Source: Sulfurihydrogenibium sp. (GTDB taxonomy: Bacteria; Aquificota; Aquificia; Aquificales; Hydrogenothermaceae). Taken from it: a stretch of 64,000 bases of DNA. Location: the NCBI GenBank assembly GCA_037442825.1, contig JBBIPN010000001.1, forward strand, positions 2,325 to 66,324, read 5' to 3'. Every line of letters begins with the position of its first letter. Within the stretch, counting starts at the first letter, position 1. The notes beneath the pieces were generated by a model. The model was not told the origin of the DNA. It saw nothing but the letters and a program-made list of their open reading frames with translations, and ran no database searches. The translations under genes were made by a program, and so were the position numbers. Shown piece by piece: positions 37,862-56,817 of this stretch.

Positions 37862-38188
37862 TTAAAACATTCCTGGTGGTTTACCTTTAGAAACAATAAG
37901 TCTTTCTACTGGTTGACCTTCTATAATATGTTTTTGAACTATTTCTTCTACATCTGCAGGTGTTATATTCCCATACCAAATAGCATCAGGATATACAACG
38001 ACATTTGGTCCAAACATACAAGGTCCTAAACAGCCTGTTGGTGTCACTGCCATCTTGTTAAAAAGTCCTTTCATCATAAGAGCTTCTTGAAACTTAATAA
38101 ATATCTGGTCTGAACCTTTATCACCACATGATGGCATACCAGGTGGTTTTCTTTGCATACAAACAAAAACATGTTTAAAATCTGACAT
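37862..38188 (-). CDS. Thioredoxin-like [2Fe-2S] ferredoxin
   Basis: HVFVC...SC ... TGCLGPC..GPNVVVYPD..WY pattern. Confidence 0.93.
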   Translation of the reverse strand: MSDFKHVFVCMQRKPPGMPSCGDKGSDQIFIKFQEALMMKGLFNKMAVTPTGCLGPCMFGPNVVVYPDAIWYGNITPADVEEIVQKHIIEGQPVERLIVSKGKPPGMF

Positions 38189-38259
38189 TTTATAACCTCC
38201 TATCTAATCATTTTTATTTAGATTATAAAAAAAACAATCATGCTTTTAAATGATTTTTA

Positions 38260-41013
38260 TTAGTAAAATAGAATATATTTTAAATAAAGATATAATTGCT
38301 TATCAAAAGATTGCTGGATACTTTTAGTATAGGAAAATCCAAAACTTAAATTATCTTGCCTTAGTATGCTTCCTCCAATACCTCCTTCTAAAGAATACCC
38401 AAGATTTAAAACATCACTGTATATTAAACCTAAACTCATAAATGGTCTCCAAGGTCTTACATAAATTTGATCGTTATCATAACCAAAAGAAAAAGTTAAA
38501 CCTAATAAATTAAAAGATTTTGGTAAAAATTTTGTATCTGCAAAAAGAGATAAAGTTTCTATATTTCCTTTATTTCCTTCTTTTTCATTATATTTTCCAT
38601 GAGAAGAATAAACTTTAAAAGTATAGTCAGGATAACCTACTCTTAATTTATAAGAAAGTTCATCATAAAGGTTAACTGAACTTCCTATTTTCATTTTATC
38701 TGAAGAATAATAAATACTATAACTTGGGTTTATATAAACGGAAGTTCTATTGTTTAAATTATGAGTTATACCTACACTATATAAATCTTTTATCCCTCCA
38801 AATTTTAAAAATAATGTATCATCACTAGATATATTTTTTCCTATATTAATTGCTAGGTAAGATTTATCTTTTAAGTATCTATTTAATGAAAATTTAAAAT
38901 ATATATCGGTTGATAGATTATATAAAGATCCTAATCCAAATTTAAGACTGCCTTCGTCTAACTTTTTCTCAATACCAATGTAAAAATCATAGATATTATT
39001 AATGTTTTTAATACCTGTATTTTTGTTTGATAACAGGAAAAAGTTATTTATATCAGTGTTGAAAAATAAATCATTTTTTACATTATAAGACAAAGATAAA
39101 TTACTTTGTATTCCATTAATGTTTGATAAATCTAAATAAGATGATTTCATATCTAATTTTGGTCTATTTGATACAATTAAATCCCTCTGTTGTTTATAAA
39201 GCAAATAGTCTTCGGAATTATCTTCTAACCCTTTATAGCCATAATACATAGCTTTATCTCTTTCTCCTACGTCAACAAGGGCAGTTACCCTATCCCTAAT
39301 AGGTAAAATTTCGATATATTTTTTGAGAATTTCTTGTTGATAATAAGTATCATACTGATTTAATGCTATATTTAGCTTCATCCAAGGCTTTAAATCAACA
39401 GAAGATCTATTAGCTAAGTATTCTACATATTCATAATCTTCTCGTTTTAATAGATGAGATAGATAAATATCTTTATAAGTATCTTCAGATATTCTATCTT
39501 TGCTTTTTTCAAGAATTTCTAAAAATTCCCTTTCTGGTAAAAATGTATCTGCCAATCTTAAAAACTCAACCAGCTCATCATCTTCCAATATTTTCTTATT
39601 TTTTAGTTCAGTAAATATCTCATATCTAATTTTATTACTTTCATCTACTCTACCGAGAGTATAAAGTATATCTGCATAAATAATCCTATCTGATATAGAA
39701 GAATTACTATAGCTTTTAAAAATATTCTGTGCTTTGTATGAGTTTTGGAGTATAAGATATAAAATTGCAAAGGGTTTTTTCAAATCATTTTGATATTCTG
39801 AGTAGTTATCAATTATATACTTAGCAAGTTCTTGATTGGATGTTTCAATAGAAGTGTATATAAGTTCTGTTAAGATTGATGGATCAACTTTTTCCTTTAA
39901 TAAGCTTTTAGTAATATCTAAAGCTTTGCTTAGATTATTAATTCTGATCAAGCTATTTATGTATTTAGAAGCTATAAAAATATTTTTTTTATAATCTATA
40001 TCCTTATTTTCTATAAAATCTACAATAGCTTTAAAATCCTTTAAATCATAAAGAGATTCAACACAAATTGAAGCTAAATATTCATTTTTAAATTTCTTAT
40101 ATCCTTCAAAACTATATTTTGAAGCATTTTTAAAATCTTTTTTTTGAAAATAGTACAAAGAAAGCCTAATGTATTCGTTCTCTCTTTCTTTTTTATCTCT
40201 AATCAATATTTTAGAAATTTTCACAACAAACTCATAATCTCTCAAAAGCCAACTTAAATCGGATAAGTTATATAGATACTCATAATACAAACTTTTTTCT
40301 TCATCAGAATATATTTTTACTTTAGTAAAAATAGATTTTAAAAATTCATACAGTTGCCTAAGTTTATTCTTAGCATATAGGATATTGGAATATAATATTA
40401 TATCCTTTAAAGAGGGATAATAATTTTTAACTAAAGTTTCACTATATTTCTCAGCTTTATCCATATATCCATACTTATATGTAACATACCCAAGATTGTA
40501 TAAAACTTCTTTATCTTTATATTTAAGATATATTTCTTCTAAGATTTTAACTAACTCTTCAATTCTTCCTGCATGAATATAAACATAAACAAAGTCTTTC
40601 ACATTTTTAGGGTTTTTTTCTAAAACATCAATAAATTTAATAGCTACATCAAACCTGTTTGCATTTACTGCAAGATTAAATAAAGTTTTCTTAAAATTTT
40701 CATCTTTTGTTATTTCATAATACTTTAACAAAGCATCTAACGACTCATATGGTTTGTTTAACCAGAGAGATATCTGTCCGAGCATCTTCCACCAATAAGG
40801 ATTTTCAGGATATGCCTGTAAACCTTTTTGTACTACTAAATAAGCATTTTCTAAATCATTATTACCTAAGAATACAGTCAATAATAACTTTAGAGATTCT
40901 TCATCTAAATTTGATTTAGAATATTTATCTACATGTTTATTTTTATCTTCTATTTCGGTTTCGCTATAGGAAAAAGATATAAAAATGAGAAGTAAAATTA
41001 AGATTACTATCAT
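38260..41013 (-). CDS. pelB: PelB C-terminal part (TPRs plus outer-membrane beta-barrel) with its own signal peptide
   Basis: Last gene of the pel cluster; TPR-rich N-terminal half, beta-strand C-terminal half ending in an aromatic residue (YLKYILFY); YVRPWRPF. Confidence 0.75.
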   Translation of the reverse strand: MIVILILLLIFISFSYSETEIEDKNKHVDKYSKSNLDEESLKLLLTVFLGNNDLENAYLVVQKGLQAYPENPYWWKMLGQISLWLNKPYESLDALLKYYEITKDENFKKTLFNLAVNANRFDVAIKFIDVLEKNPKNVKDFVYVYIHAGRIEELVKILEEIYLKYKDKEVLYNLGYVTYKYGYMDKAEKYSETLVKNYYPSLKDIILYSNILYAKNKLRQLYEFLKSIFTKVKIYSDEEKSLYYEYLYNLSDLSWLLRDYEFVVKISKILIRDKKERENEYIRLSLYYFQKKDFKNASKYSFEGYKKFKNEYLASICVESLYDLKDFKAIVDFIENKDIDYKKNIFIASKYINSLIRINNLSKALDITKSLLKEKVDPSILTELIYTSIETSNQELAKYIIDNYSEYQNDLKKPFAILYLILQNSYKAQNIFKSYSNSSISDRIIYADILYTLGRVDESNKIRYEIFTELKNKKILEDDELVEFLRLADTFLPEREFLEILEKSKDRISEDTYKDIYLSHLLKREDYEYVEYLANRSSVDLKPWMKLNIALNQYDTYYQQEILKKYIEILPIRDRVTALVDVGERDKAMYYGYKGLEDNSEDYLLYKQQRDLIVSNRPKLDMKSSYLDLSNINGIQSNLSLSYNVKNDLFFNTDINNFFLLSNKNTGIKNINNIYDFYIGIEKKLDEGSLKFGLGSLYNLSTDIYFKFSLNRYLKDKSYLAINIGKNISSDDTLFLKFGGIKDLYSVGITHNLNNRTSVYINPSYSIYYSSDKMKIGSSVNLYDELSYKLRVGYPDYTFKVYSSHGKYNEKEGNKGNIETLSLFADTKFLPKSFNLLGLTFSFGYDNDQIYVRPWRPFMSLGLIYSDVLNLGYSLEGGIGGSILRQDNLSFGFSYTKSIQQSFDKQLYLYLKYILFY

Positions 41014-42101
41014 TTTAGCACCTCATTTTTAATTTCTAATGCAATTTCATGAGCAAATTTGGGATCTCCTGTAGCTAAAGCTGATTTTAGTATAAATTTA
41101 ACCATTTCTCTGTCTTGTAGGAAATTTTTATAATTTTTTCTAATTGTTTCTTTTACAAGTCTATAATTTTTGCTATACATAGCAATTTCTAAGGTCTTTT
41201 TGAAATATTCTTTTTTCTTATTAAAGTTTCTTTCTTTTTCTAAGAGAAATAAACAGTAATCCATAGCTTTAATATAATCTCTTCTGATTAAGTATAAATC
41301 TAAAATCTTTTTATTATAAGAAACTTCATTATTTTTATCTAAAACTTTAAGATAATTTAAAGACCATAAAGCTTCGTCGTAATCTTTAAGCATTAAAGAA
41401 ATGTTATAAAATTTTTGAAGCCAAAAAACTTTATCCTTTTCATCCTTCATTATCAACTTTCTAAGTATATTTAAAGCAATGGAATAATTTTCTGTAGCTA
41501 ATGATTGTTTATAACTTTCTTCTAACCAATGTAAATTTTCTGGTTTTATTGAGTTTATTTTTAAACTAACTTCAAGAGCTATATCTGGAAAAGCCATAGA
41601 TAAAGATTCTTTAAAAATCTCCTCTAAAAAGTTTAGATCTAACGATTTTCTATAACTTGATTTTAATATTTCTTTCATCTCTTGTCTAATCTTTTCTTTA
41701 TCTTCTTCTGAAAATTGATCTGAAAAATATTTAGTTTTTAATATTAAATATTTTGAAAAAAAAGCTTTTGCTTTAATATTTTCTTCTGGATATAACTCTA
41801 ATTCCTTGATATAATCCAGTACTTCATCATATTTGCCTAATTTTATAAGTCTTTCTACCATTAAAATTTTTAAATTTGGATCTGGATTTAATTTTATTAA
41901 TTGTTTTAAGTATATATTTGATAAATTTATATTAGAATCTTCTTCTAGAATAAAACGCTCTATTTTACCTTTAGGAAATAAAATATAAGCTATAAGAAAG
42001 AAAATTATAACAAATACTGCTATCTCCTTATTATCTATAAACTTAGCTTTTACAGTAGGCTTCCACATTGACTTCTTTCTCTTTTTTAAATTTGTACTCA
42101 T
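41010..42101 (-). CDS. PelB N-terminal-like TPR protein with an N-terminal membrane anchor
   Basis: TM segment then LSNIYLKQLIKLNPD..LKILMVERLIKLGKYDEV, resembling the recalled N-terminus of Pseudomonas PelB. Confidence 0.65.
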   Translation of the reverse strand: MSTNLKKRKKSMWKPTVKAKFIDNKEIAVFVIIFFLIAYILFPKGKIERFILEEDSNINLSNIYLKQLIKLNPDPNLKILMVERLIKLGKYDEVLDYIKELELYPEENIKAKAFFSKYLILKTKYFSDQFSEEDKEKIRQEMKEILKSSYRKSLDLNFLEEIFKESLSMAFPDIALEVSLKINSIKPENLHWLEESYKQSLATENYSIALNILRKLIMKDEKDKVFWLQKFYNISLMLKDYDEALWSLNYLKVLDKNNEVSYNKKILDLYLIRRDYIKAMDYCLFLLEKERNFNKKKEYFKKTLEIAMYSKNYRLVKETIRKNYKNFLQDREMVKFILKSALATGDPKFAHEIALEIKNEVLK

Positions 42102-44781
42102 AGATATCTTTCTCTTTAACTATTTCATAGTTTTTATTTGGATCTACAATAACTTCACAATTCTTATTTAAAATTTTAAAATTTAGAGGAAGATAACTTT
42201 TTAGTTTAAAATAAATCTTATCATTCTCTTTTTTATAGGATACTATCTGACCGTTCGAATCAATAAGTAAAAATTTTGGAATTTCATTAGATAGAATAAT
42301 TTTAGAATTTCCTTCATTTGAAAGATGTACATATATTGAGTTATTGATTTTTTTATATCCTAAAATTCCTTCACTTTTAAAAATATCAATATCTATATCT
42401 TTATCAAATCTAACTGTTTTTAAATTTCCTTCACTTCTAATAACAAAATTATCAACTAAATCTTTAGCTATTACGGTGTTTCTAAACTCTAAAACTCTTT
42501 GAGCATATTCAGATAAAAACATAGGATTATTATCTTGAGAAATAGCATAGTTGTATACTTCTTTTAATGCTTGTAATGAAGATATTTTTTGACCAGAATA
42601 AAAATGATAGTATATATTTAGTGGTTTAAATCTATAAGGTTTATCTGTAAGTTTAAAAGTCGATATAACATTTAAATAACCATTATAATATGTCCATAAA
42701 TCTGTATAAATATTTTCGTTTTGAATAGGTGCATATATTTGAAAGTACTCTCCTTTATTTACTCCCATAGATGATATAAGAGAAAAATAGGGGAATTTAG
42801 AGCTAATTTCAGTATTTCCACCATTTACATTATATATACCATATTTATAAGTAAGTTTTATTGCTTCTTGCGGTGGGACACAATCCCCTGTCCATAAGAA
42901 AACTTTAACTTTTTTTCCAGGTGGCAAAAGGTTTTTATCTATATAATCTATAGAATCTGTTATTTCTCTTTCAAGACTAAATTTGTAATCTTTTATATTT
43001 AAATTATAGATTCCTTCCTTATAAGAATTACGATCCTTATGTTTAAAATATTCATATAAAAGTATCCACTTATAAGGATGGGAAAAAGAATGACTTGCCG
43101 GTTCTACATTTTCAAGTTGAAAAATAGATTTAGCAATACTTTCAAGATTTTTACTTTTATCAGGATATAATCCATTAGGACTTATCTCTCCTTCTATAAT
43201 AGATATGGTATGAGGTATTTTATAAACCTTTAGTATTTCATCTCTAATTATTTCTCCTAAATTTTTTTGTGGGTTAAAATCAGCTACACCAAAAAAAGCA
43301 TCTCCATCTATATGAGAAATCAATATTCTTTTACCGTTTTCTGTAGTAACATCAGGAATAGGAAAAGATGGTTTAAAAACATCTTTAAATATCTCTACAG
43401 GATTAAAAACAAAAAGAGCAGGATCTAGCCCTGCAAACAAAAATGTATTTTCAAGAGCATAGCCTCCCCAATCTGTAATTGCAAAAGGAAAAAACTCTTT
43501 ATTACCTACATAAATAGATAAAACAGGTTTATAATTTCCAAATGGGACTATTTTTTGGATAGAACCAAAATTTTCAGGTTTTATCTCAAAATATTTGTAA
43601 TCGTAGGTTTTATAATCTACTTTTTCAAAAAGAGATAATGTTCCTATGTTTTTGAGTTTTAAAACATTTGATAAAAAATCTTCATCATATGGAAGAGTTA
43701 AAAAAAATACTTTTAATCCATCTTTTATCTGATTTTCTATCCAAGCAAGTATTTCTTTAGAAAACTCTTCTGGTTGAAGATTTACTATTACACCAGCATA
43801 CTCATCCCCAATATAATTTTTTGGAATCTCTTTTATATCAACTAAAACAGGAACAAATCCTAAATATTCTAAAAAAACTTGGAAATTTTGATGAACTTCA
43901 TTATAAGAGGGATCTGTTTTAGAAGAGTTATATGGTATTAATATCTTCCTTGGTATTATTTGATATATACTTGTTCCTAACGTTTGTAAAAATTTATCTG
44001 TAACGTAAGGAATAAAACCATACTGATAAATTTTTTTTGCTACTTCTTTTTGTAATTTTTTATCTTTTGGATTTACATAATCTATAACTATAACTTTTAA
44101 ACCTAATTCTTTTATTTTGCTTAATTGGTTTAAAAGCCAGTTTCTATCTTCTTCTTCTTTTTGTTTTTTATAATACATACTTTTTGTATCTAACCCATAA
44201 AACAAAGATTCTGCAACTACAGCATCTATTTTATCTTTTACATATGGAACAACTTCAAAACCTCTATTTAGTATTATTTTTTTTGTTGAATATTTAGATT
44301 TCACCTCATTTATAAATGAAATTATAGATTCTTGGTACGCTTTAATTTCTTCTGGCTTCTTTAAAACAGCTTGATAACTATCTACTGTATCAAAGAAAAA
44401 ACCATCATATTTTTCTAACTTAGACATAACATTGTTTATTAGAAACTCCATATAACCTTTATTTCTTAAATCTGCTATATATGTTTTCCAATCTTTGTTT
44501 TCTCCTAATATCCATTCTTTCTTTATATCTTTATAATAACTTCTGTAAGGTTCTATTTCTCCAATAGATACATATGCAAAAAGTTTTGACTTTTTATTTT
44601 TTATATAAAATTTTTCATTTAGTTTTTCAAAAGAAAAATTGTCTGGATCTACTACTAACCAATCATAAAGATAAAAAGCTTCTTCAGGTGGTTGTTTATA
44701 AATAAATCCTACACTTATATTTTCAGCCCAAACTATGTTAATAAAACTAAATAAGCATAAAAGTTTGATAATGTATTTCAT
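42043..44781 (-). CDS. pelA: Bifunctional alpha-1,4-GalNAc glycoside hydrolase / deacetylase PelA
   Basis: YVSIGE, FFFDTVDSY, ILNRGFE and VVAES (GH domain); HIDGD, ASHSFSHP and YYHFYSG (deacetylase domain). Confidence 0.92.
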   Translation of the reverse strand: MKYIIKLLCLFSFINIVWAENISVGFIYKQPPEEAFYLYDWLVVDPDNFSFEKLNEKFYIKNKKSKLFAYVSIGEIEPYRSYYKDIKKEWILGENKDWKTYIADLRNKGYMEFLINNVMSKLEKYDGFFFDTVDSYQAVLKKPEEIKAYQESIISFINEVKSKYSTKKIILNRGFEVVPYVKDKIDAVVAESLFYGLDTKSMYYKKQKEEEDRNWLLNQLSKIKELGLKVIVIDYVNPKDKKLQKEVAKKIYQYGFIPYVTDKFLQTLGTSIYQIIPRKILIPYNSSKTDPSYNEVHQNFQVFLEYLGFVPVLVDIKEIPKNYIGDEYAGVIVNLQPEEFSKEILAWIENQIKDGLKVFFLTLPYDEDFLSNVLKLKNIGTLSLFEKVDYKTYDYKYFEIKPENFGSIQKIVPFGNYKPVLSIYVGNKEFFPFAITDWGGYALENTFLFAGLDPALFVFNPVEIFKDVFKPSFPIPDVTTENGKRILISHIDGDAFFGVADFNPQKNLGEIIRDEILKVYKIPHTISIIEGEISPNGLYPDKSKNLESIAKSIFQLENVEPASHSFSHPYKWILLYEYFKHKDRNSYKEGIYNLNIKDYKFSLEREITDSIDYIDKNLLPPGKKVKVFLWTGDCVPPQEAIKLTYKYGIYNVNGGNTEISSKFPYFSLISSMGVNKGEYFQIYAPIQNENIYTDLWTYYNGYLNVISTFKLTDKPYRFKPLNIYYHFYSGQKISSLQALKEVYNYAISQDNNPMFLSEYAQRVLEFRNTVIAKDLVDNFVIRSEGNLKTVRFDKDIDIDIFKSEGILGYKKINNSIYVHLSNEGNSKIILSNEIPKFLLIDSNGQIVSYKKENDKIYFKLKSYLPLNFKILNKNCEVIVDPNKNYEIVKEKDIYEYKFKKEKEVNVEAYCKS

Positions 44782-46114
44782 TTAAAAACCTCCTTAACAG
44801 CAATACTGCAAATATATTACAAATAAATAAAGAAGTTAAAAAACCATAGCCATAAAAATAAGGTCCTAAAGCTATACTTATATATGTAAAACTTCCATTT
44901 AAAAGAACAAAAAATAAACTTAGTATTAACACTTCTTTTCTTCTATCAAAGTAATTTAAAATAGCTAACAACACCATAAAAATAAGTTGCATATAAACAG
45001 CCAACAATAGTATATGAAAGATAGGTATGTATAAAAAAGATAAGTTAAACATTTTAAAAATTGTTTTATCAAAAAAGATAATAATGATAAAAAATATACC
45101 TTGTATTCTTAAAGTATCAAAAATTACATTCCGTGCTGAGTATAGTAAATTATCTCCAAATTCATAAATCTTATTTAATGTAGCTCCTTCCCTTACAGCT
45201 TTATAATATTTATTGTAATATTCAGCAAACTCTGTTTCTAACTTTAAAAAGAATATGGCTATTCCTGGTGTTATAGATAAGTATGCTAAAAACATAGGTA
45301 TATCATAAACAATTGATGATCTTATAGGTCCTAAGATTTCTAAACCTGTATCTCTATGAAACCAAAAGATAAATTTATCAATCCAAATCCCAAGGTTATA
45401 AAAAAATCCCGAAAATATAAGAGAAATATAAATTTTATCCTTTTCTAAGAAATCAAAAGCTATTAAATTTTTAGATGGGTAACTTCTCACAAAATAAGAT
45501 AATAAAAGGAAATATATAACCCCTTGACCTAAGAAAAAGGAAACTAAAAGACCAGTTAAATTGTACTTAACAGTTAAAAAAGAGGAAAGAAAAAATACTA
45601 AGTAACCCAATAAAAAAGAGAAAACAATAAATTTATAACTTTTAAAACCTACAATTACTATATTAATAATCCAAATCCCACTCATTATTGAAAATGTTCC
45701 GGTAAAAGCTATAATAAAAGGAACTCCTAAATCTTTAAAAAAATATAGTGAAAAAAGCAAAGATAATATAAAAGCTGCAGACATATTTAATAACATATTA
45801 CCCATTAGATTTGGCAGTATAATTTCTTCTTTTCCTTCAAACAGTCTATCTGCTAAAAACCTTGTTATCATCAACTGAGAAAATCCTGTAATTACTAAAG
45901 TAAAAGCCGTAAGATAAGTTACAACAATACCAAACTGTATAATTACCTTATCAGAAATAAATGGTCTTAAAAAAACAAAAGCTAAAATCAAAGTTAAAAT
46001 AGAGATTATATAAGGACCTGCCATTAGTACAACCGAGTATCCAAATGCTTTTAAAATAGAACCAAGAGTATTTTCCTTTAATATTTTCCTTAGTTCAAAA
46101 CTTATTCCTGCCAA
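44747..46114 (-). CDS. pelG: Pel exopolysaccharide transporter PelG
   Basis: MAGISFELRK start, LGIWIDKFIFW, YDIPMFLAYLS and LNYFDRR motifs; multiple TM segments. Confidence 0.95.
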   Translation of the reverse strand: MAGISFELRKILKENTLGSILKAFGYSVVLMAGPYIISILTLILAFVFLRPFISDKVIIQFGIVVTYLTAFTLVITGFSQLMITRFLADRLFEGKEEIILPNLMGNMLLNMSAAFILSLLFSLYFFKDLGVPFIIAFTGTFSIMSGIWIINIVIVGFKSYKFIVFSFLLGYLVFFLSSFLTVKYNLTGLLVSFFLGQGVIYFLLLSYFVRSYPSKNLIAFDFLEKDKIYISLIFSGFFYNLGIWIDKFIFWFHRDTGLEILGPIRSSIVYDIPMFLAYLSITPGIAIFFLKLETEFAEYYNKYYKAVREGATLNKIYEFGDNLLYSARNVIFDTLRIQGIFFIIIIFFDKTIFKMFNLSFLYIPIFHILLLAVYMQLIFMVLLAILNYFDRRKEVLILSLFFVLLNGSFTYISIALGPYFYGYGFLTSLFICNIFAVLLLRRFLNEIHYQTFMLI

Positions 46115-47628
46115 CTTTTTAATACCTCTTGGTATATTTTTTTATAATTATTTAAAAATTGATCTTTTCTATAAAATCTATTGACTCTTTTTAAAGCATT
46201 TAATTGGTATTTTCTCCATAAATTTTCATCTGTTAATATTGAAATATAAGCTTTTGACAACAACTCTGGATTTGCTATTGGAACCACCTCTCCAGCTTCT
46301 CCTATTTCTAGATCTTCTTGATTTAAACCTCCATAAATTAGTTGTCTACAAGATCCAACGTCAGTAGTAACTGCTGGTAACCCTGCTGCAAATCCTTCAA
46401 GAACAACCAAAGGCATTCCTTCACTTATAGATGTTAAAGTTAATATTCCTGTCTTCGGGAAAATGTCCTTAGGATTTTGAAATCCTAAAAATTTTACATT
46501 TTCTTCTAACGAATATGCTTTTACAAGTAATAAACATTCCTGATAGTAATTAGGATCCTCATCTGTAGGACCCACTATCCATCCTTCTACATCTGGTAAA
46601 TTATTCACTACAATTCTCATAGCCTTTATAAATGTTTTTATATCTTTTATAGGAACAACCCTTCCTAATAAAGTTATAACTTTCGGTATATATGATGGCC
46701 TTTTTTCTAAAGCTAAAGCATATCCATCTACATCAACACCATTCGGAATTACTATACATTTATCTTCAGGTGCATCATAGGAAATTTGTATTTTCCTTGC
46801 ATCATCAAAAAGAGATATAATAAGATCACTAGCATGGTAAATAAATCTTCCAATACTTTCAAAAAATTTTATCCATATATTTTTTATATGGCTCACTTCC
46901 CCTATATCCCTTTGGAAAAAGAATCTTTCATCTTTTAACCAGTCTGAATGCATTAAATCAATTTTTCTTTCTTTTGTATAAATACCGTGTTCTGTAAGAA
47001 TAAAAGGCTTTTTTTTATGATACTTAAGGAGAGAAGCTAAAAAACCAGCATATCCTGTGGACGGACTATGTACTAAACCAAAATCCGGAATATTTGATGC
47101 TACTTTTGCAACAGTCCATATTGGAGCATGCATATTCCTTATATTCCAAAAATAATCAATAAAAGGGCTTTCTTGGTCATATTCAGCATACATATTTATT
47201 ATAAAGTCCCAAGCCTCTCTACTAAATAGAAAATCTTCGTGTTTTATATCTTCTATAAAAAATCTAATATCTTTCAATTTGTCTGGTAAATCTAATTTTT
47301 TATCAAAATTTTCTTTAAACCAATTATGTAAAAATTCTATATATTTAAATTTCTCTTTATCTACATTTCTTTCCTTAGGTTTAACTTCTTCTTTATAATC
47401 AAATATATAAGAAACAGAAAGGTAAACTATGTTTTCAGGTAATTTATACTTTATTTCTCCATAATCTTCTGGTCTACTTCCTAAAAAAACGACACCAAAA
47501 TTAATATCACTTAATCCACTTACTAACTCATGAATCCAAGAAGAAACACCTCCTCTTATATAGGGGTAAGTCCCTTCTGCAATTATAAGTATATCTATTT
47601 TTTTATTTTTATTGATTATCTCTATCAT
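46102..47628 (-). CDS. pelF: GT4 glycosyltransferase PelF
   Basis: EGTYPYIRGGVSSW, STGYAG, TEHGIYTKER, RVVPIKDIKTFI and SEGMPLVVLE motifs. Confidence 0.95.
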   Translation of the reverse strand: MIEIINKNKKIDILIIAEGTYPYIRGGVSSWIHELVSGLSDINFGVVFLGSRPEDYGEIKYKLPENIVYLSVSYIFDYKEEVKPKERNVDKEKFKYIEFLHNWFKENFDKKLDLPDKLKDIRFFIEDIKHEDFLFSREAWDFIINMYAEYDQESPFIDYFWNIRNMHAPIWTVAKVASNIPDFGLVHSPSTGYAGFLASLLKYHKKKPFILTEHGIYTKERKIDLMHSDWLKDERFFFQRDIGEVSHIKNIWIKFFESIGRFIYHASDLIISLFDDARKIQISYDAPEDKCIVIPNGVDVDGYALALEKRPSYIPKVITLLGRVVPIKDIKTFIKAMRIVVNNLPDVEGWIVGPTDEDPNYYQECLLLVKAYSLEENVKFLGFQNPKDIFPKTGILTLTSISEGMPLVVLEGFAAGLPAVTTDVGSCRQLIYGGLNQEDLEIGEAGEVVPIANPELLSKAYISILTDENLWRKYQLNALKRVNRFYRKDQFLNNYKKIYQEVLKSWQE

Positions 47629-48616
47629 TTTCTTTACACCAAAGTATTTTCATAAAATGAGTTCTAACCTGCGGTGTTGTGTCAAGTTGTGAAAACAATC
47701 GCTTAACCATGTCATATTTTTTTTCATAAAAATAACATTCTACAAGATAAGGTATAACTTTATTTTTTCTAACTTTGTTAGAAAAGTAGGCTTTTACTAA
47801 GTATTCTTTAGCTTTGATATAGTCTTTAATATATAAATAAATTCTTCCAAGTAAAAAGTAAGCTAAAAAGTTTTCTTTTATATTTAAACTCTCTTTTACA
47901 TAAAAAATGGTTTTTTCAATAAAAAATTTTCTCATCTCTTCATCTGCAATTTTAAAAATGATAAAGTTCCAATAAATTTGCCCTAACTCCAGATAAATTT
48001 CTGCTTTTTCTTCATTAGATAAATCTTCCTCCTTTAATTTCTCATTTAACATATAAATCTTTTCATTTAAATCTTTTTCCATTTTTGAGATTAAACTAAA
48101 TGCCATTAGCCTTATTTCATCAATACTACTTGATATACTTTCTTTTACAACTGCCATAGTATTTGGATCTAAATTTTCTTGGATATAAAGAAAAATTTTC
48201 TCCGCCAAACCTTTTGAAGAATTTTTATTTAAACTAACAATGTTTATAGAACCTTCACCAAATTTTCTACTATTAAATTTAAAATCTTCACTATAAACTT
48301 CATTAATAGTAAATTTTTCAAAAAGTTTAACTCCAGCATCCCTCTCTTTCTTTAAGACAAAAATTGCTAAAAGTAGGAAAATGTATCCTAATACAAGTCC
48401 AAAAAAACCTACCAAAAAAAATACAGTTAAAACGGATAGATATTTTTGATCTATATTTATCTTCCTCTTTAAAAGTACAGATATAACTGAAGATAATAGA
48501 AAAATTGCTATTCCATGAAAGAGGAAAAAAAGAAAAATCGCTAAATAAATATTTTCAATAAAGATAGTACCCATAGACAAAATTTCAAAAAAACCAGAGT
48601 AATAAATTTTATTCAT
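47609..48616 (-). CDS. pelE: PelE-like membrane protein with TPR
   Basis: N-terminal TMs; DEIRLMAFSL; C-terminal TPRs; lies between pelD and pelF. Confidence 0.8.
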   Translation of the reverse strand: MNKIYYSGFFEILSMGTIFIENIYLAIFLFFLFHGIAIFLLSSVISVLLKRKINIDQKYLSVLTVFFLVGFFGLVLGYIFLLLAIFVLKKERDAGVKLFEKFTINEVYSEDFKFNSRKFGEGSINIVSLNKNSSKGLAEKIFLYIQENLDPNTMAVVKESISSSIDEIRLMAFSLISKMEKDLNEKIYMLNEKLKEEDLSNEEKAEIYLELGQIYWNFIIFKIADEEMRKFFIEKTIFYVKESLNIKENFLAYFLLGRIYLYIKDYIKAKEYLVKAYFSNKVRKNKVIPYLVECYFYEKKYDMVKRLFSQLDTTPQVRTHFMKILWCKENDRDNQ

Positions 48617-49893
48617 TTTTCAAAACCTTCATAATCTAAAATATAATTTAAAGATTCTTCAACATTTTCATTTATTTCTCTAACATTAATTCTTAAATTC
48701 TTTTCCAAGAAAGATCTTGAAAAATGTTCTACTATTTCACTTTCAAACCTTTTGATAAAAGAATATGCTCCTGATATAGGAGTAAATGGAAGAAGTATTG
48801 GTACAATAAGTAAGTCTTTTTGTTTCATATAGATTTCATCTCCAATATCTAATCCTCTTATCTGTTTTTGAATAAAGTAATAGAAACTTCCTTTATAAGG
48901 ATAGTTTTTCACGTAAATAACTACAAGAGACGAATCGAGGCCAAAGTTTTCATAAATTTCTGCCATTCTTATAGTCTCTTTCAAAAATTCAAAGCTGAAA
49001 TCTCTGTATTTTGAAATAAGTTTACTATTTTTCATTATAAAACTTTCTTCATTTGCAATATAGGAAATAAATAAACTTATCATTAACAAATTATCTAAAT
49101 TTAAAGAAAGAAAATCCATCTTTTCAATGACAAATAGATATGCTTTATTTTCATTAATAAACACAGGAACAACTGCAAGATATTTTGTAGATTTTTCTAC
49201 ATAAGTTAAAAATGTTATAGATTTATCTTCTAATGCTTTTTGAATAAGTATATCATCTACATCTATTTTAAAATCATCATCTGTTAAAAAAATAGTTTTG
49301 TATTCTTTTTCATATACTGAAATCTTTATAAATCCAGCTCTTTCTATATTAAAGGTATGAATTATTAAAGAACAGAGATTTTGAAAAACAGAATTAATGT
49401 TTTTCTCTTCTAACATTTGTTGTCTAATTTGAATAATAATTCCTCTAATACTAACAGGTTTTAAAATATACTGTTTTTCTAATTGATCATGGGAAACTTT
49501 TAAAATCATAAACTCTTTTGCTAAATCTCTCAATTTCTCTTCTATATATTTATATTTCTCTTCACTTCTTTTTGTTTTCTCTTGCCAGTAATAGTAAAAT
49601 TCAGAACATATCAATAAAATCAAAAAAGACAATAAGAAAATCTCCGTTGGAAAATATTTATAGAATAAAGTAAAACTCCCAATAAATAGTATTAAATAAA
49701 CGAATCCAGCTAAAAATCCATAATACAAGGAAAAAACAATAAGAGGTATAAGATAAATAAAGTATATATAAAATACATTCGTCTTTAAAAGAAAAGGGTC
49801 ATTAGGACTAAAATAGTAACCAATTCCTACAATTAATAATAAAAATAGAATTACTTCGGCAACTAATATTTTTAAGCTTATTTCTTTTAACAC
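48613..49893 (-). CDS. pelD: c-di-GMP receptor PelD (TM-GAF-degenerate GGDEF)
   Basis: Four TMs; LKVSHDQLE coiled coil; I-site RGLD at 48847-48858; ILLPFT. Confidence 0.88.
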   Translation of the reverse strand: MLKEISLKILVAEVILFLLLIVGIGYYFSPNDPFLLKTNVFYIYFIYLIPLIVFSLYYGFLAGFVYLILFIGSFTLFYKYFPTEIFLLSFLILLICSEFYYYWQEKTKRSEEKYKYIEEKLRDLAKEFMILKVSHDQLEKQYILKPVSIRGIIIQIRQQMLEEKNINSVFQNLCSLIIHTFNIERAGFIKISVYEKEYKTIFLTDDDFKIDVDDILIQKALEDKSITFLTYVEKSTKYLAVVPVFINENKAYLFVIEKMDFLSLNLDNLLMISLFISYIANEESFIMKNSKLISKYRDFSFEFLKETIRMAEIYENFGLDSSLVVIYVKNYPYKGSFYYFIQKQIRGLDIGDEIYMKQKDLLIVPILLPFTPISGAYSFIKRFESEIVEHFSRSFLEKNLRINVREINENVEESLNYILDYEGFEK

Positions 49894-49907
49894 TTTAAAC
49901 TACCTTA

Positions 49908-50393
49908 TTAAGGTATTATACTATTCAAAATTTTCTGTGCTACTGTTGTAATAGATTCATGAGACCAACCTGTTTTTGATCCTACACTTGTATAGAGCTC
50001 TCGACCTTCTTTAATATCATAGATCTTTAACGTTATACTTACAGCTGGTTCACCATCAATACCTGTTTTATATCTAAATTCATTTACTGAGCCAGTGATA
50101 GCATAATCAATATTGTCTTCTTTTAATTTCTCTATCATACTTTTTATTTCACTAGGGCTATAATCTTTATCTTGATTTATTTGCTGAAAAGTAATTTTAT
50201 AACCCTTTGAAGTCAAAACTCCTTCAGTAATAGATTTAACTCTAAGTCCTGCTAAAGGCGTCTCAGTATAATTTTCGAAAGGTAAAACTGTTATTATCTT
50301 ATTTTTCAAATTAGCTTTTGATTTATCTATATTTGTTATGGTAGAGCATGAGGCAATAAGCACAAAGAAACATAAAAAAAGTATTTTTTTCAT
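49908..50393 (-). CDS. pelC: Outer-membrane lipoprotein PelC
   Basis: Lipobox IASC; VLPFENYTETPLAG; EFRYKTGIDGEPAV. Confidence 0.9.
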   Translation of the reverse strand: MKKILFLCFFVLIASCSTITNIDKSKANLKNKIITVLPFENYTETPLAGLRVKSITEGVLTSKGYKITFQQINQDKDYSPSEIKSMIEKLKEDNIDYAITGSVNEFRYKTGIDGEPAVSITLKIYDIKEGRELYTSVGSKTGWSHESITTVAQKILNSIIP

Positions 50394-50425
50394 TTTTCCA
50401 TTCCTCCAATTAATTAGTTAAATCT

Positions 50426-51433
50426 TTATCTTTTTTCCCATTCTAAAGCTGTTTTACAAATAAAATTTAAATCATCATACTTTGGTTTCCAGTTTAATTT
50501 TTTTAATATTTTCTCATTATCTGCTACTAATACTGCTGGATCTCCTTCCCTTCTTTTTGTTATCTCTACTTTAAAATCTAATCCTGATACTTTTTTCATC
50601 GTATTGACAACTTCTAACACAGAATATCCTTTACCATATCCACAGTTAAAAATATCACTTTCATTATCGGATAAATACTCTAAACTCTTTAAATGTGCAT
50701 CTGCTAAATCATCAACATGAATAAAATCTCTTATACATGTTCCATCAGATGTTGGATAATCTGTACCATATACAAACATTTTATCTCTTTTACCAACAGC
50801 AGTTTCTGCTGCTACTTTTATTAAATGGGTTGCATTTGGAAATCTTTGTCCTATTCTAATTTTTGCATCTGCACCAGCTACATTAAAGTATCTAAGAATT
50901 ACATATTTAAAGTTAGAGTTGGAAAAACCAACATCTTTTAATACCATCTCACTCATTAATTTAGTTCTACCGTAAGGATTTATAGGGTTTGTTGGTGTAG
51001 TCTCTTTAACAGGAATTTCATCCGGTTCTCCATATACAGCAGCTGTAGAAGAAAATATAAATTTATTTACATTGTATTTTAGGCATAGATTTATTAAATT
51101 TGCTGTATTAACTGTGTTATTTATATAATACTTAATAGGATTTCTAACACTTTCTGGAACAACTATACTTGCAGCAAAATGTATAACAGCATCAAAATCA
51201 CTCGCTTTAAAAATTCCTTCCATTATACTAAAATCTTTTAAATCAGCTTCAATAAACTTAAAATCTCTATTTTTACCAGATTGTTTATTTATATCTTCTA
51301 AAGTTTTTATTGTTTCTATGGATCCAGTTGACAGATTATCTATTATAGTGATGTCAAAATCTGTATTTTCTATTAGCTGTTTTACTACATGACTTCCTAT
51401 ATATCCTGCTCCTCCTGTTATAAGAATATTCAT
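50426..51433 (-). CDS. galE: UDP-glucose/UDP-GlcNAc 4-epimerase (PelX-like position)
   Basis: TGGAGYIGSH, FSSTAAVYG, YGRTK, LRYFN and RDFIHV motifs. Confidence 0.93.
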   Translation of the reverse strand: MNILITGGAGYIGSHVVKQLIENTDFDITIIDNLSTGSIETIKTLEDINKQSGKNRDFKFIEADLKDFSIMEGIFKASDFDAVIHFAASIVVPESVRNPIKYYINNTVNTANLINLCLKYNVNKFIFSSTAAVYGEPDEIPVKETTPTNPINPYGRTKLMSEMVLKDVGFSNSNFKYVILRYFNVAGADAKIRIGQRFPNATHLIKVAAETAVGKRDKMFVYGTDYPTSDGTCIRDFIHVDDLADAHLKSLEYLSDNESDIFNCGYGKGYSVLEVVNTMKKVSGLDFKVEITKRREGDPAVLVADNEKILKKLNWKPKYDDLNFICKTALEWEKR

Positions 51434-51933
51434 TTCCTACCTCTCAATTTGTTAATTATTTCTTCTACTATCTGATTGGGATTTTTTCTATCTGCATTAA
51501 TTCTTATATTAGCTAAACTATATATCTTTTTTCTATTTTCATATAATTTTTTTAAATCGGCTGGTGGGAGTTTTAACAAAGGTCTATTTTCATCATTTTT
51601 ACACCTTTCAAGTATAGTATTTAAAGTTACATCTAACCAAATAACATTACCTGTTTCTCTCATAACTTTCATATTATCTAAATCTGCTCCAAGACCACCA
51701 CCAGTAGAAACAACATAACCCTTACTTTTTGATAAATTATTAATTTCGATTTTTTCTAAATTTCTAAAGTACGATTCTCCTTCTTTTTCAAAAATCTCTT
51801 TAATATATCTATTTTCCTTTTTTTCTATCAATTTATCAACATCTATAAATGTTAAACTAAGTTTAGTTGCAAGTAACTTTCCAACAGTTGATTTACCACT
51901 GCCCATAAAGCCTACAAGATATATATTTTCCAT
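51430..51933 (-). CDS. aroK: Shikimate kinase
   Basis: GFMGSGKST, GESYFR, STGGG and RPLL motifs. Confidence 0.96.
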   Translation of the reverse strand: MENIYLVGFMGSGKSTVGKLLATKLSLTFIDVDKLIEKKENRYIKEIFEKEGESYFRNLEKIEINNLSKSKGYVVSTGGGLGADLDNMKVMRETGNVIWLDVTLNTILERCKNDENRPLLKLPPADLKKLYENRKKIYSLANIRINADRKNPNQIVEEIINKLRGRK

Positions 51934-53852: not shown

Positions 53853-55229
53853 ATGAAGGTAATAATACTTGCTGGTGGTTCTGGAACAAGACTTTGGCCT
53901 TTATCAAGGAAAAACTATCCAAAACAGTTTTTAAAAATAGGAAATGATAAATCTCTTTTACAACAGACAGTTGAAAGAGTAAAAAAACTTGTAGCAGATG
54001 AGGATATTTTAGTTATAACAAATAAAGATTATAAATTTCACATAAAAGCAGAACTTAAAAATCTACCAGAAGAAAATATAATACTTGAACCAGAAGCTAA
54101 AAACACAGCACCAGCTATAGCTTTAGCTGTTAAATACTGTTTAGATAAACTTCAATGTAGTGAAGATGAAACCATACTTATTTTGCCTTCAGACCATATC
54201 ATAAAACCAAAAGAAAAATTTAACGATTATATAAAATCAGCATCAGATTTAGCTAAAGATCATATTATTACATTTGGTATAAAGCTAACAAAACCAGAAA
54301 CAGGATATGGATACATTAAGATAGGAGAAAAAATAAAAGACAACTTTTTTAAAGTAAATAAATTTACAGAAAAACCAGATTTAGAAACAGCAAAAAGATA
54401 TATAGAAAGTGGTGACTATTTCTGGAATTCTGGGATGTTTATGTTTAGCATTAAAACAATAAAAGAAGAGTTTGAAAAATATTCTCCAGAAATATCTAAA
54501 ATATTTTCTCAAACTTTTGAAGAATCTGTTAATACTTTTTCTAAAATGCCAAATATATCCATAGATTATGAAATTATAGAAAAATCAAACAGAGTAATAA
54601 CAACTCTTTTAGATATTAAGTGGAGTGATATAGGTTCTTGGGATGCTTTAGATGAAATTTCAGAAAAAGACAGTTTTGGAAATGTAAAAGTAGGAGATGC
54701 TTTAACCTTTGACACAAAAAATACATTTATACTTGGAAATAAAAGGCTTATTGTAGCTTTAGGTTTAGAAGATTTAATTATAGCAGAAACAGATGATGCA
54801 ATACTGATAGCCAAGAAAGGAGAAACTCAAAAGGTTAAAAATGTTGTTGAAAGCCTTTCAAAAACTGGAAGAAAGGAAGCAATAGAACATACTACCGTCT
54901 ATAGACCATGGGGGTCATATACATTACTTGAAACAGGTGAAAGGTATAAGATAAAAAAAATAGTTGTAAACCCAGGACAAAAACTTAGCTTTCAGATGCA
55001 TCATCATAGGAGTGAACACTGGGTTGTAGTTAAAGGAACAGCAAAAGTTACTATAGAAAACAAAGAAATATTTTTACATGAAAATGAATCTACATACGTA
55101 CCAAAATCTACACCACATAGGCTTGAAAATGTAGGAAAGATACCACTTGAGATAATAGAAGTTCAAAATGGAGAATATATAGAAGAAGATGATATTATAA
55201 GGTTTGACGATGCATATGGCAGACAATAA
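53853..55229 (+). CDS. manC: Mannose-1-phosphate guanylyltransferase / mannose-6-phosphate isomerase
   Basis: LAGGSGTRLWPLSR, WNSGMF, SIDY and WSDIGSW motifs; C-terminal cupin RPWG ... HHHRSEHW. Confidence 0.95.
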   Translation: MKVIILAGGSGTRLWPLSRKNYPKQFLKIGNDKSLLQQTVERVKKLVADEDILVITNKDYKFHIKAELKNLPEENIILEPEAKNTAPAIALAVKYCLDKLQCSEDETILILPSDHIIKPKEKFNDYIKSASDLAKDHIITFGIKLTKPETGYGYIKIGEKIKDNFFKVNKFTEKPDLETAKRYIESGDYFWNSGMFMFSIKTIKEEFEKYSPEISKIFSQTFEESVNTFSKMPNISIDYEIIEKSNRVITTLLDIKWSDIGSWDALDEISEKDSFGNVKVGDALTFDTKNTFILGNKRLIVALGLEDLIIAETDDAILIAKKGETQKVKNVVESLSKTGRKEAIEHTTVYRPWGSYTLLETGERYKIKKIVVNPGQKLSFQMHHHRSEHWVVVKGTAKVTIENKEIFLHENESTYVPKSTPHRLENVGKIPLEIIEVQNGEYIEEDDIIRFDDAYGRQ

Positions 55230-56817
55230 ACATCAGATAAATCTTTTTATTTTTCTAACTATCTTTATACTTATATGGAACTTCTGGTATAACGATATTT
55301 GGATTCCAAATGAAAGCTTTTATGCTGAATCTGTTAGAGAGATGTTTGAATCTAAAAATTTTTTAGATATATACTACAACTATGAACCACGTTTTAATAA
55401 ACCACCATTAACTTACTGGTCCCTAGCTTTATCTGTATTTATCTTTGGATTAAACGAGTTTGCTATAAGATTACCTATAGTCTTAATGGCTATTGGAAGC
55501 ATTTTTCTCACTTATAAAATAGCCCAGATTCTTTTTGATAAAAAAGTAGCTATTTTTTCTTTTTTTGTTATGGCATTTAGTTTTCAATTTGTAATAAACT
55601 CTCGTTATGCTTCTCCAGAAATTCCACTTTTATTTTTCTTTACTCTTACGTTATACTTTTTCATAAAAGGTTATAAGGAGAATAGATATTTTTACATCTA
55701 TCTATCATATATCTCTTTAGGACTTACTATCTTAACAAAAGGTTATCCTTATCTGGTGGTTTTAAGTGGTATTGTAGGATTTTATCTTCTCTTGGAAAGT
55801 AATTTCAACATTAAAGAATGGATAAAAAAAATTTTAAAACTTAAAGTTTATATAGGACTTCCTATAGCTATAATTGTAGGTTTTAGCTGGATTTTATATA
55901 TGCATTTTAAGTTTGGAAATCAGTTTTGGGACGTTTACAATAAAGAAACCATAAAAAGAGCTTTTGGAGATGATTTCAAATTTTCTAATCTATTTTTCTA
56001 TACTATTGTAATACTTTGGGGATTTTTACCTTACTCTTTAACATTTTATTTCGGCTTCTTAAATAGTTATAGAAGATGGATTAAAGATTTTTCTTTTATA
56101 TTTAGCTGGATTTTTGTAATGTTTGTAATATTTACTATTGCAAAAGGTAAAATACCAACTTACTTTATACAAGCTCATCCAGCATTATCTATTTTTGTTG
56201 GTTATTATCTCGTAAATTATAAACCAGATGGATTAAAAAAGTATCTATGGAACTTTTCTCTTATATTCCCAACGTTAATAGTAATAACTTTAAATTTTCT
56301 TCTTGTGTACCTATTTAAATTAGACTATCTTTATTATCTAATATCTTTCTTTCCTATCTTATACTTTTTAAAGTATAAAGACACCAGACTTTTACCTTTT
56401 ACAGCTATACTTACAACATTTTTAATTTTTACAGTTTCTTTACTCCCAAAAGTTGAAAACTATAGACCTTATAAAGAGATCGGATATATTGTAAACTACA
56501 ATGTACCAGATAGAAAACTACCTTTGATAATTGAAAGAAGATTTTTCCATAACTTACCTTTTTATGCTAAGAGAAAAGTATTGAGAGACTATAGTTTAGA
56601 AGATATAGAAAATTTTAGAAAAGAAAATGGATTCCTACTTGCTTTGATAGATGAAGACAGTTTAAAAAAGCTTGATAATGTTAAAATACTATGGAGCGGT
56701 TATTTATACACTGAAAGCGAGTCACGGTTTGCAGTATTTCTAAAAAATATATATAAACTTGAAAATGGGGAAAAATCAAAATTTGTAAAAATGTATCTTG
56801 TTAAATCACTGTTTTAA
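55204..56817 (+). CDS. ArnT/PMT-family (GT-C) integral-membrane glycosyltransferase
   Basis: NESFYAESVREM, RFNKPPLTYW, EFAIRLP and LTKG motifs; about 13 TM segments. Confidence 0.88.
   Translation: MTMHMADNKHQINLFIFLTIFILIWNFWYNDIWIPNESFYAESVREMFESKNFLDIYYNYEPRFNKPPLTYWSLALSVFIFGLNEFAIRLPIVLMAIGSIFLTYKIAQILFDKKVAIFSFFVMAFSFQFVINSRYASPEIPLLFFFTLTLYFFIKGYKENRYFYIYLSYISLGLTILTKGYPYLVVLSGIVGFYLLLESNFNIKEWIKKILKLKVYIGLPIAIIVGFSWILYMHFKFGNQFWDVYNKETIKRAFGDDFKFSNLFFYTIVILWGFLPYSLTFYFGFLNSYRRWIKDFSFIFSWIFVMFVIFTIAKGKIPTYFIQAHPALSIFVGYYLVNYKPDGLKKYLWNFSLIFPTLIVITLNFLLVYLFKLDYLYYLISFFPILYFLKYKDTRLLPFTAILTTFLIFTVSLLPKVENYRPYKEIGYIVNYNVPDRKLPLIIERRFFHNLPFYAKRKVLRDYSLEDIENFRKENGFLLALIDEDSLKKLDNVKILWSGYLYTESESRFAVFLKNIYKLENGEKSKFVKMYLVKSLF

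Follow-up and report, generated by a model that had tools for sequence, protein, structure and literature searches.

On the minus strand of a 64,000-nucleotide stretch of contig JBBIPN010000001.1 (GenBank assembly GCA_037442825.1, Sulfurihydrogenibium sp., phylum Aquificota), hereafter the window, lies a cluster of genes for the synthesis and export of the exopolysaccharide Pel. Nine consecutive open reading frames (ORFs) run between positions 38260 and 51433 in the order galE-pelC-pelD-pelE-pelF-pelG-pelA-pelBn-pelBc, with PelB encoded by two reading frames, and all nine are intact in the ORF listing of the window (Table 1). A preliminary description, made from the sequence, had claimed such a tightly overlapped nine-gene Pel cluster, galE included, in a probable Aquificota sulfur oxidiser. 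Indeed, every gene is present and intact, and the junctions from galE/pelC through pelBn/pelBc measure +32, +14, -4, -20, -13, -35, -59 and -4 nucleotides (nt). The host was also correctly recognised: the genus is Sulfurihydrogenibium, and the closest PelF sequences come from an uncultured Aquificales metagenome-assembled genome (MAG; 88% identity) and from isolates (72-75%, with S. yellowstonense SS-5 at 75%). The assembly itself is MAG-like (1.35 Mb, 137 contigs, 99% complete). When we asked whether hidden Markov models (HMMs) favour another polysaccharide system, an outcome that the same description had named as a refutation, HMM and structure-sequence matches gave Pel, and no other such system, for every gene. 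Taken together with the conserved catalytic and ligand-binding residues, the conserved layout and the purifying selection documented below, all of which can be read directly from the data as can the identities and intactness of the genes, this makes it very probable that the cluster works as a synthase-dependent system for Pel exopolysaccharide, resident on the chromosome of a Sulfurihydrogenibium species.

Table 1. Genes of the pel cluster, in the direction of transcription, and of its neighbourhood in the window, with predicted products.
Gene	Position	Strand	Length (amino acids, aa)	Predicted product and features
galE	50426-51433	-		Gne-type uridine diphosphate (UDP)-glucose (Glc)/N-acetylglucosamine (GlcNAc) 4-epimerase; TIGR01179, 482 bits
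pelC	49908-50393	-	161	Outer-membrane lipoprotein, forms periplasmic ring
pelD	48613-49893	-	426	Inner-membrane receptor of cyclic di-GMP (c-di-GMP): membrane segments, GAF, degenerate GGDEF
pelE	47609-48616	-		Inner-membrane tetratricopeptide repeat (TPR) protein; N-terminal membrane segments and weak TPR
pelF	46102-47628	-		Cytoplasmic glycosyltransferase of family GT4 (polymerase)
pelG	44747-46114	-		Polytopic inner-membrane exporter component
pelA	42043-44781	-	912	Periplasmic bifunctional glycoside hydrolase/de-N-acetylase
pelBn	41010-42101	-		Uncleaved membrane anchor and TPRs; about residues 1-280 of Pseudomonas PelB
pelBc	38260-41013	-	917	Own signal peptide, TPRs, outer-membrane beta-barrel; about residues 283-1193 of Pseudomonas PelB
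aroK	51430-51933	-		Shikimate kinase, upstream, non-pel function; PF01202, 166 bits
Ferredoxin gene	37862-38188	-	108	Thioredoxin-like ferredoxin; weak Suc_Fer-like match
manC and PMT-family gene	53853-56817	+		manC-type mannose-1-phosphate guanylyltransferase/isomerase, then an overlapping PMT-family (dolichyl-phosphate-mannose type) glycosyltransferase

PelA aligns with the full-length PelA of P. thermotolerans (PDB 9cgy) across residues 23-879 with an E value of 1e-126 and also matches the hydrolase domain of PDB 5tcb (E 1.5e-27); Pfam and NCBIfam place glycoside hydrolase family 114 (GH114) in the same protein. In Pseudomonas aeruginosa PelA, the hydrolase residues are D160 and E218, and the deacetylase uses D528 as catalytic base, D530/H600/H604 as metal triad and H761 as catalytic acid, together with E723 and H526 (PMC12022489). 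Through the alignment to P. thermotolerans PelA, D131 and E191 of the window protein fall on D160 and E218, and H490, D492, D494, H564 and H568 fall on H526, D528, D530, H600 and H604; the motifs around E723 and H761 also keep their Glu (in IQNENIY) and His (in IYYHFYSG). PelF scores 627.8 bits against the equivalog model NF038011 (cut-off 100), contains DUF3492 (PF11997, 287.8 bits) and Glycos_transf_1 domains, and has an EX7E motif (E403..E411) that, like R323 and K328, is invariant in an alignment of 11 Aquificales sequences. Intact catalytic motifs in both enzymes had been claimed beforehand and are confirmed by these alignments. Full-length PelA homologues have been recorded from several phyla, Aquificota being named among them (PMC12022489, 2025), and a Campylobacterota genome (MAG243, locus L070) carries a pel operon with two tandem full-length PelA genes of 938 and 924 aa. 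NF038011 also scores above its cut-off in the control genomes of Deinococcus radiodurans and Thermotoga maritima, so a lone PelF match is no sign of a complete Gram-negative pel system.

The membrane-associated components could be assigned as well. PelC has a lipobox, IAS-C16 (Cys16), and matches PDB entries 5t0z (E 1e-22), 9h80_C (E 2.2e-21) and 5t10/5t11 (about 6e-20). PelG matches PF16933 at 440 bits over its full length (1-452 of 452 residues) and has about 12 hydrophobic segments. PelD has hydrophobic segments within residues 1-99, matches the PelD_GGDEF model PF16963 at 37.9 bits (cut-off 27) and aligns with PDB PelD 4euv over residues 153-407 (E 1.8e-4); its R346-G-L-D349 and R382 align with R367/D370, the RxxD I-site, and R402, a second Arg for c-di-GMP, in the P. 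aeruginosa protein (roles described in PMC7112168). Since the genome carries 10 GGDEF-domain proteins, c-di-GMP signalling exists in this organism, and a c-di-GMP input to the putative PelD site is plausible. In PelE, residues 12-90 contain hydrophobic segments, and TPR_8 matches weakly, below the cut-off. It is 48% identical to the gene at 543620..544609 of strain YO3AOP1, classed as PelE_G2-1 by the HMMs of PMC7112194, and pelE always lies between pelD and pelF in all loci that have both flanking genes; its predicted identity therefore rests on architecture, position and the published class of its orthologue, there being no curated PelE model.

The ninth gene, galE, links the cluster to a possible supply of activated sugar. 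Its product finds its best PDB match in 7k3p (E 6e-132, 443 bits, against about 240 bits for E. coli GalE), which is the two-substrate UDP-Glc/GlcNAc 4-epimerase Gne of Campylobacter jejuni (CjGne), a group 2 enzyme and the sole source of UDP-N-acetylgalactosamine (UDP-GalNAc) in that organism. By alignment to 7k3p, the catalytic residues T130 (SSTAAVYG), N184 (RYFNVAG) and Y154-K158 (YxxxK) are kept, and the specificity position holds a small residue, L302, aligned with L294 of CjGne and with Y299 of E. coli GalE (for the roles of these residues, see bioRxiv 10.1101/2020.09.22.308395). GalE would then be a group 2 GalE/Gne UDP-hexose 4-epimerase that plausibly supplies UDP-GalNAc for Pel. A pel-linked UDP-GlcNAc/GalNAc 4-epimerase is known from Pseudomonas protegens as PelX (bioRxiv 10.1101/2020.05.26.111013), which differs in belonging to group 3. 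We considered GalE as an orthologue of this WbpP-like enzyme and rejected it, since the closest relative is the group 2 C. jejuni Gne; no chain named PelX occurs among the 33 PDB matches of GalE at E <= 1e-40. Although no PelX orthologue, GalE would do the same job of supplying UDP-GalNAc. It is the only GalE above the cut-off in the genome and therefore probably serves several pathways. galE adjoins pelC in Sulfurihydrogenibium, and a few loci of Campylobacterota have more distant GalE homologues beside their pel genes. An epimerase gene that supplies UDP-GalNAc is also linked to pel in the pelDEA(DA)FG + galE arrangement of Bacillus cereus ATCC 10987 (PMC7112168), where PelD likewise has the RxxD site, whereas this Gram-positive system is without PelB and PelC, both of which are present here.

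The alternative that survives best concerns the product. A Pel-like machine might make a chemically different polymer, built from a different hexosamine, say, or acetylated to a different degree, if the specificities of PelA, PelF and GalE differ from those in Pseudomonas. Similarity to characterised proteins is moderate, with PelD at E 1.8e-4 and PelB detectable only by profiles; divergent pel operons may not yield an identical polymer, as PMC7112194 warns; and GalE is of the two-substrate group 2 type, not the GlcNAc-preferring PelX type. However, every catalytic residue of the PelA hydrolase and deacetylase is kept within an alignment that spans the full length at E 1e-126, a conservation that has been argued to imply a GalNAc-rich substrate (PMC12022489), and the enzyme nearest to the adjoining epimerase is one whose production of UDP-GalNAc has been proven. 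We therefore regard a different polymer as unlikely and favour Pel itself, whose chemistry, like its control by c-di-GMP, we infer by homology.

The gene content, the gene order and the division of PelB were already known for the genus. Bundalovic-Torma et al. 2020 (PMC7112194; legend to Fig 5(iii) and supplementary file 5) listed pel operons of eight genes, two of them PelB, in YO3AOP1 and S. azorense Az-Fu1, described "pelB fission ... in aquatic thermophilic species" and also listed a pel operon of Persephonella marina. Both Sulfurihydrogenibium operons (YO3AOP1, NC_010730, 541851..554145; Az-Fu1, NC_012438, 833057..845395) have the same pelC-D-E-F-G-A-B-B order with two PelB genes and galE directly upstream, and their products are between 43% (PelBn) and 82% (GalE) identical to those in the window, which comes from a separate species-level genome of identical architecture. 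In two same-genus genomes we located PelF at 544639-546102 and 835861-837321, coinciding with the published YO3AOP1 (544606..546120) and Az-Fu1 (835864..837351) coordinates, and the PelF position of a third relative likewise matches that published for Persephonella marina EX-H1. The P. aeruginosa operon pelABCDEFG (PA3058-PA3064) provides all seven functions found here, with the PelA, PelD and PelF residues kept and with PelB and PelC matching the solved PelBC complex. Unlike in P. aeruginosa, however, pelA and pelB follow pelG instead of preceding pelC, PelB is split at about residue 280, an epimerase gene is adjacent and the host is a thermophile. Geobacter lovleyi SZ also has PelB listed as two adjacent genes, but in the canonical order pelA-B-B-C-D-E-F-G (PMC7112194, supplementary file 5).

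To place this arrangement more widely, we scanned named genomes with a PelF alignment, which gave 592 relatives, and judged the layout in the nearest 80 loci; these belong to Aquificota, Campylobacterota, a few Desulfobacterota, Elusimicrobiota and others. This order, pelC-D-E-F-G-A and then two PelB ORFs, holds in 12/12 Aquificales loci examined, three complete isolate genomes among them, and pelCDEFGA-Bn-Bc recurs in nearly all sufficiently long loci of the nearest 80, many of them from Campylobacterota. Across a large clade of operons in Aquificota, Campylobacterota and some Desulfobacterota, pelCDEFGA-B-B with a split PelB is the usual arrangement; the non-Pseudomonas order to which the preliminary description drew attention is real, but normal for this clade. 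PelF itself is present in 8/9 Sulfurihydrogenibium genomes (this one counted), in 19/41 close relatives and, across Aquificota, in 67/178 genomes and 22/34 genera. A locus in a MAG labelled Acidobacteria J001 (L037), in which pelG-A-Bn-Bc runs in the opposite orientation to pelCDEF, and another in a MAG labelled Candidatus Micrarchaeia archaeon (L039) have PelF sequences that fall inside Aquificota clades (64% and 60% identity, respectively); these are probably mis-binned Aquificota contigs, transfers being less likely. One genome of the same family (G016) has two full-length PelF genes (C155:5461-6930 and C86:1244-2692; 683 and 498 bits), suggesting that it holds two pel loci that differ in origin.

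This distribution bears on whether the operon was acquired horizontally in recent times, perhaps from Campylobacterota, as opposed to being a long-standing trait of the lineage. The pel region has a guanine-plus-cytosine content of 23-28% (window positions 38001-50000) compared with 30-33% in the flanking housekeeping genes, and PelF is patchily distributed over the phylum. A quick maximum-likelihood tree of PelF, midpoint-rooted and built without an outgroup, breaks up the Aquificota: its starred branches require four or more changes, and the Persephonella sequences group nearer to Nautiliaceae. Against this, PelF occurs in 8 of 9 genomes of the genus, the window PelF sits within a starred Sulfurihydrogenibium clade, the upstream aroK-galE-pelC order is also found in YO3AOP1, and the flanking genes are housekeeping ones (purD, a decarboxylase, minCD, proS, manC, purA and rph) with none of a mobile element. 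The Sulfurihydrogenibium clade, the common upstream context and the housekeeping flanks therefore place transfer at deeper levels and not recently in this genome, and we reject recent acquisition as very unlikely. The phylogenetic check of vertical versus horizontal origin proposed at the outset points to a divided answer, vertical within the genus and horizontal deeper down, where Aquificota are split. Our reading is that the operon would have descended vertically within Sulfurihydrogenibium after older exchange among thermophilic or sulfidic vent and hot-spring lineages.

The two PelB reading frames required a more sensitive comparison. Single-sequence PDB searches with either half returned generic TPR proteins only, and PelB homology was recovered only by orthologue profiles. 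The Bn profile, built from 11 orthologues, has its best PDB match in P. aeruginosa PelB (9h80_M, 1193 aa) at residues 8-234 (E 1.1e-12), and the best match of the Bc profile lies on the same chain at residues 283-743 and, for the barrel, 977-1057 (E 6.3e-36); pelBc also matches PF24604 B-barrel_PelB_C (E 5.5e-35) and TPR_15. Because these matches are collinear on 9h80_M, Bn and Bc represent a collinear fission at about PelB residue 280, such that all regions of the single-chain architecture (anchor, TPR scaffold and barrel) are found in order, yet on two polypeptides. Behind a basic N-terminus, Bn carries a single hydrophobic helix (residues 22-47) for which no cleavage site is obvious, and the start of Bc is a hydrophobic signal sequence of its own; the two frames meet in an ATGA overlap with GAGGTG just upstream. 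Across the 12 Aquificales loci, Bn ranges from 306 to 398 aa and Bc mostly from 896 to 1022 aa, and the two usually share a 4-nt overlap. In a few Campylobacterota relatives PelB is fused (1183-1217 aa), and Bn matches the N-terminus of these proteins and Bc the remainder. Measured against the nearest relative, Bn and Bc have ratios of nonsynonymous to synonymous substitution rates (dN/dS) of 0.24 and 0.19, respectively, and the range across pelE, pelF, pelG, pelA, pelBn and pelBc is 0.10-0.24. Both PelB halves are under purifying selection and, as their ratios resemble those of the other pel genes, the split is no damage but a long-standing arrangement of two proteins maintained by selection. 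Further division also occurs: in a locus of the same family (L028, 12745-16355) the C-terminal part is itself divided (529 and 673 aa), so that PelB comes in three pieces, and a Campylobacterales MAG (L064) has a similar divided pair (526 and 565 aa).

Although PelB is a single protein in Pseudomonas and in those few Campylobacterota, the notion that the two frames are one gene broken by a frameshift or an assembly error, leaving export and the operon defective, is extremely improbable and was rejected, given a split at the same place in every Aquificales locus, the ATGA junction behind GAGGTG, a separate signal sequence on Bc and anchor on Bn, a dN/dS of about 0.2 in both halves and the two PelB genes in the published tables for YO3AOP1 and Az-Fu1 (PMC7112194).

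Upstream of the cluster, the start of galE and aroK overlap by 4 nt (-4), and aroK is probably co-transcribed with the galE-pel genes. A scan for sigma-70 promoters gave 88 sites compared with a mean of 100.6 in shuffled sequence and was uninformative in such AT-rich DNA. The search for internal terminators in the operon found none that was convincing, with no signal at the operon end either, and an Rfam search of the whole window returned zero RNA families. Directly downstream of pelBc lies the small ferredoxin gene, whose product is 95% identical to that of the gene at the same position in another genus (L027, 15535-15861), where PelF is only about 57% identical, and 97% identical to its counterpart in locus L033 with a dN/dS of 0.05; it is a very strongly conserved small protein. 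The manC/PMT pair, 2.4 kb away from the pel cluster, constitutes a second, unrelated envelope-glycan module.

Modelled on the characterised Pseudomonas and Bacillus systems, the proteins of the cluster suggest the following route. The Gne-type GalE would convert UDP-GlcNAc to UDP-GalNAc, the cytoplasmic PelF would polymerise the sugar, and the inner-membrane PelD/PelE/PelG complex would move the chain across the membrane once the RxxD site of PelD binds c-di-GMP. In the periplasm, PelA would trim and partly de-N-acetylate the alpha-1,4-GalNAc chain, which would then exit through the PelB beta-barrel with the PelC lipoprotein ring as its cap. PelB would act in this route as two proteins, Bn anchored in the inner membrane and bearing TPRs, and Bc exported by its own signal peptide and bearing the PelA-docking TPRs and the porin. 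The PelB of Pseudomonas has an uncleaved apolar N-terminus and is proposed to bridge both membranes, with PelA binding placed at its residues 332-436 (PMC12141448, cryo-electron microscopy of PelBC). After the split, the anchor belongs to Bn, and Bc has both the porin and the PelA-docking region, so any PelB bridge would be non-covalent. We infer such cooperation of Bn and Bc from this division; that the split PelB is a working bridge, with Bn at the PelDEFG synthase and Bc in the outer membrane joined non-covalently, and Pel possibly a streamer scaffold, is a proposal whose chances we judge to be evenly balanced.

Several points weigh against a functional Pel system on this model. As single sequences, PelD and PelB match the Pseudomonas proteins weakly, and PelE lacks a curated model. 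Because NF038011 passes its cut-off in Deinococcus and Thermotoga, PelF alone is no proof of a GalNAc polymer. As the sole GalE of the genome, the epimerase may stand beside pelC in a general housekeeping role. Finally, the main matrix polymer may be something other than Pel, because the genus is reported to have a cellulose (bcs) operon, in S. azorense. We nevertheless hold to the reading of the cluster as a functional Pel system.

For the biology of these bacteria, the question is what Pel might do in the mats they build. Sulfurihydrogenibium grows at around 70 degrees C, and Pel may be the streamer matrix and its enzymes thermostable, as the preliminary description reasonably suggested. A streamer-biofilm MAG study of 2025 reported PelC, PelG and a GH114/deacetylase protein in Aquificota and tied them to matrix formation (PMC12297393), an earlier outline of the streamer-matrix idea, and multi-omics at Mammoth Hot Springs recorded abundant transcripts and proteins for the biosynthesis of extracellular polymeric substances in Sulfurihydrogenibium mats, in a text that does not name Pel (PMC6918859). 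We found no demonstration of the Pel polymer in any member of Aquificota in the literature searched. The occurrence of PelF in 22 of the 34 Aquificota genera supports the idea that Pel-type polymers possibly contribute to hot-spring and vent streamer mats; Pel from the split-PelB clade of Aquificota and Campylobacterota could serve as a cationic scaffold of sulfur-streamer mats at roughly 70 degrees C.

To conclude, our analysis adds one more Sulfurihydrogenibium genome to those with a catalogued pel cluster and leaves existing knowledge of that cluster unchanged. Coming from a thermophile, its proteins could suit structural work on PelB, PelD, PelE and PelG. The role of the split PelB in spanning the periplasm offers a modest new angle, the two-gene form being ancient, widespread and selected; it would amount to a natural dissection of the proposal, made for Pseudomonas, that PelB bridges two membranes (PMC12141448). 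If the non-covalent bridge holds true, the Aquificota/Campylobacterota clade would show that spanning both membranes does not require PelB to be one chain.

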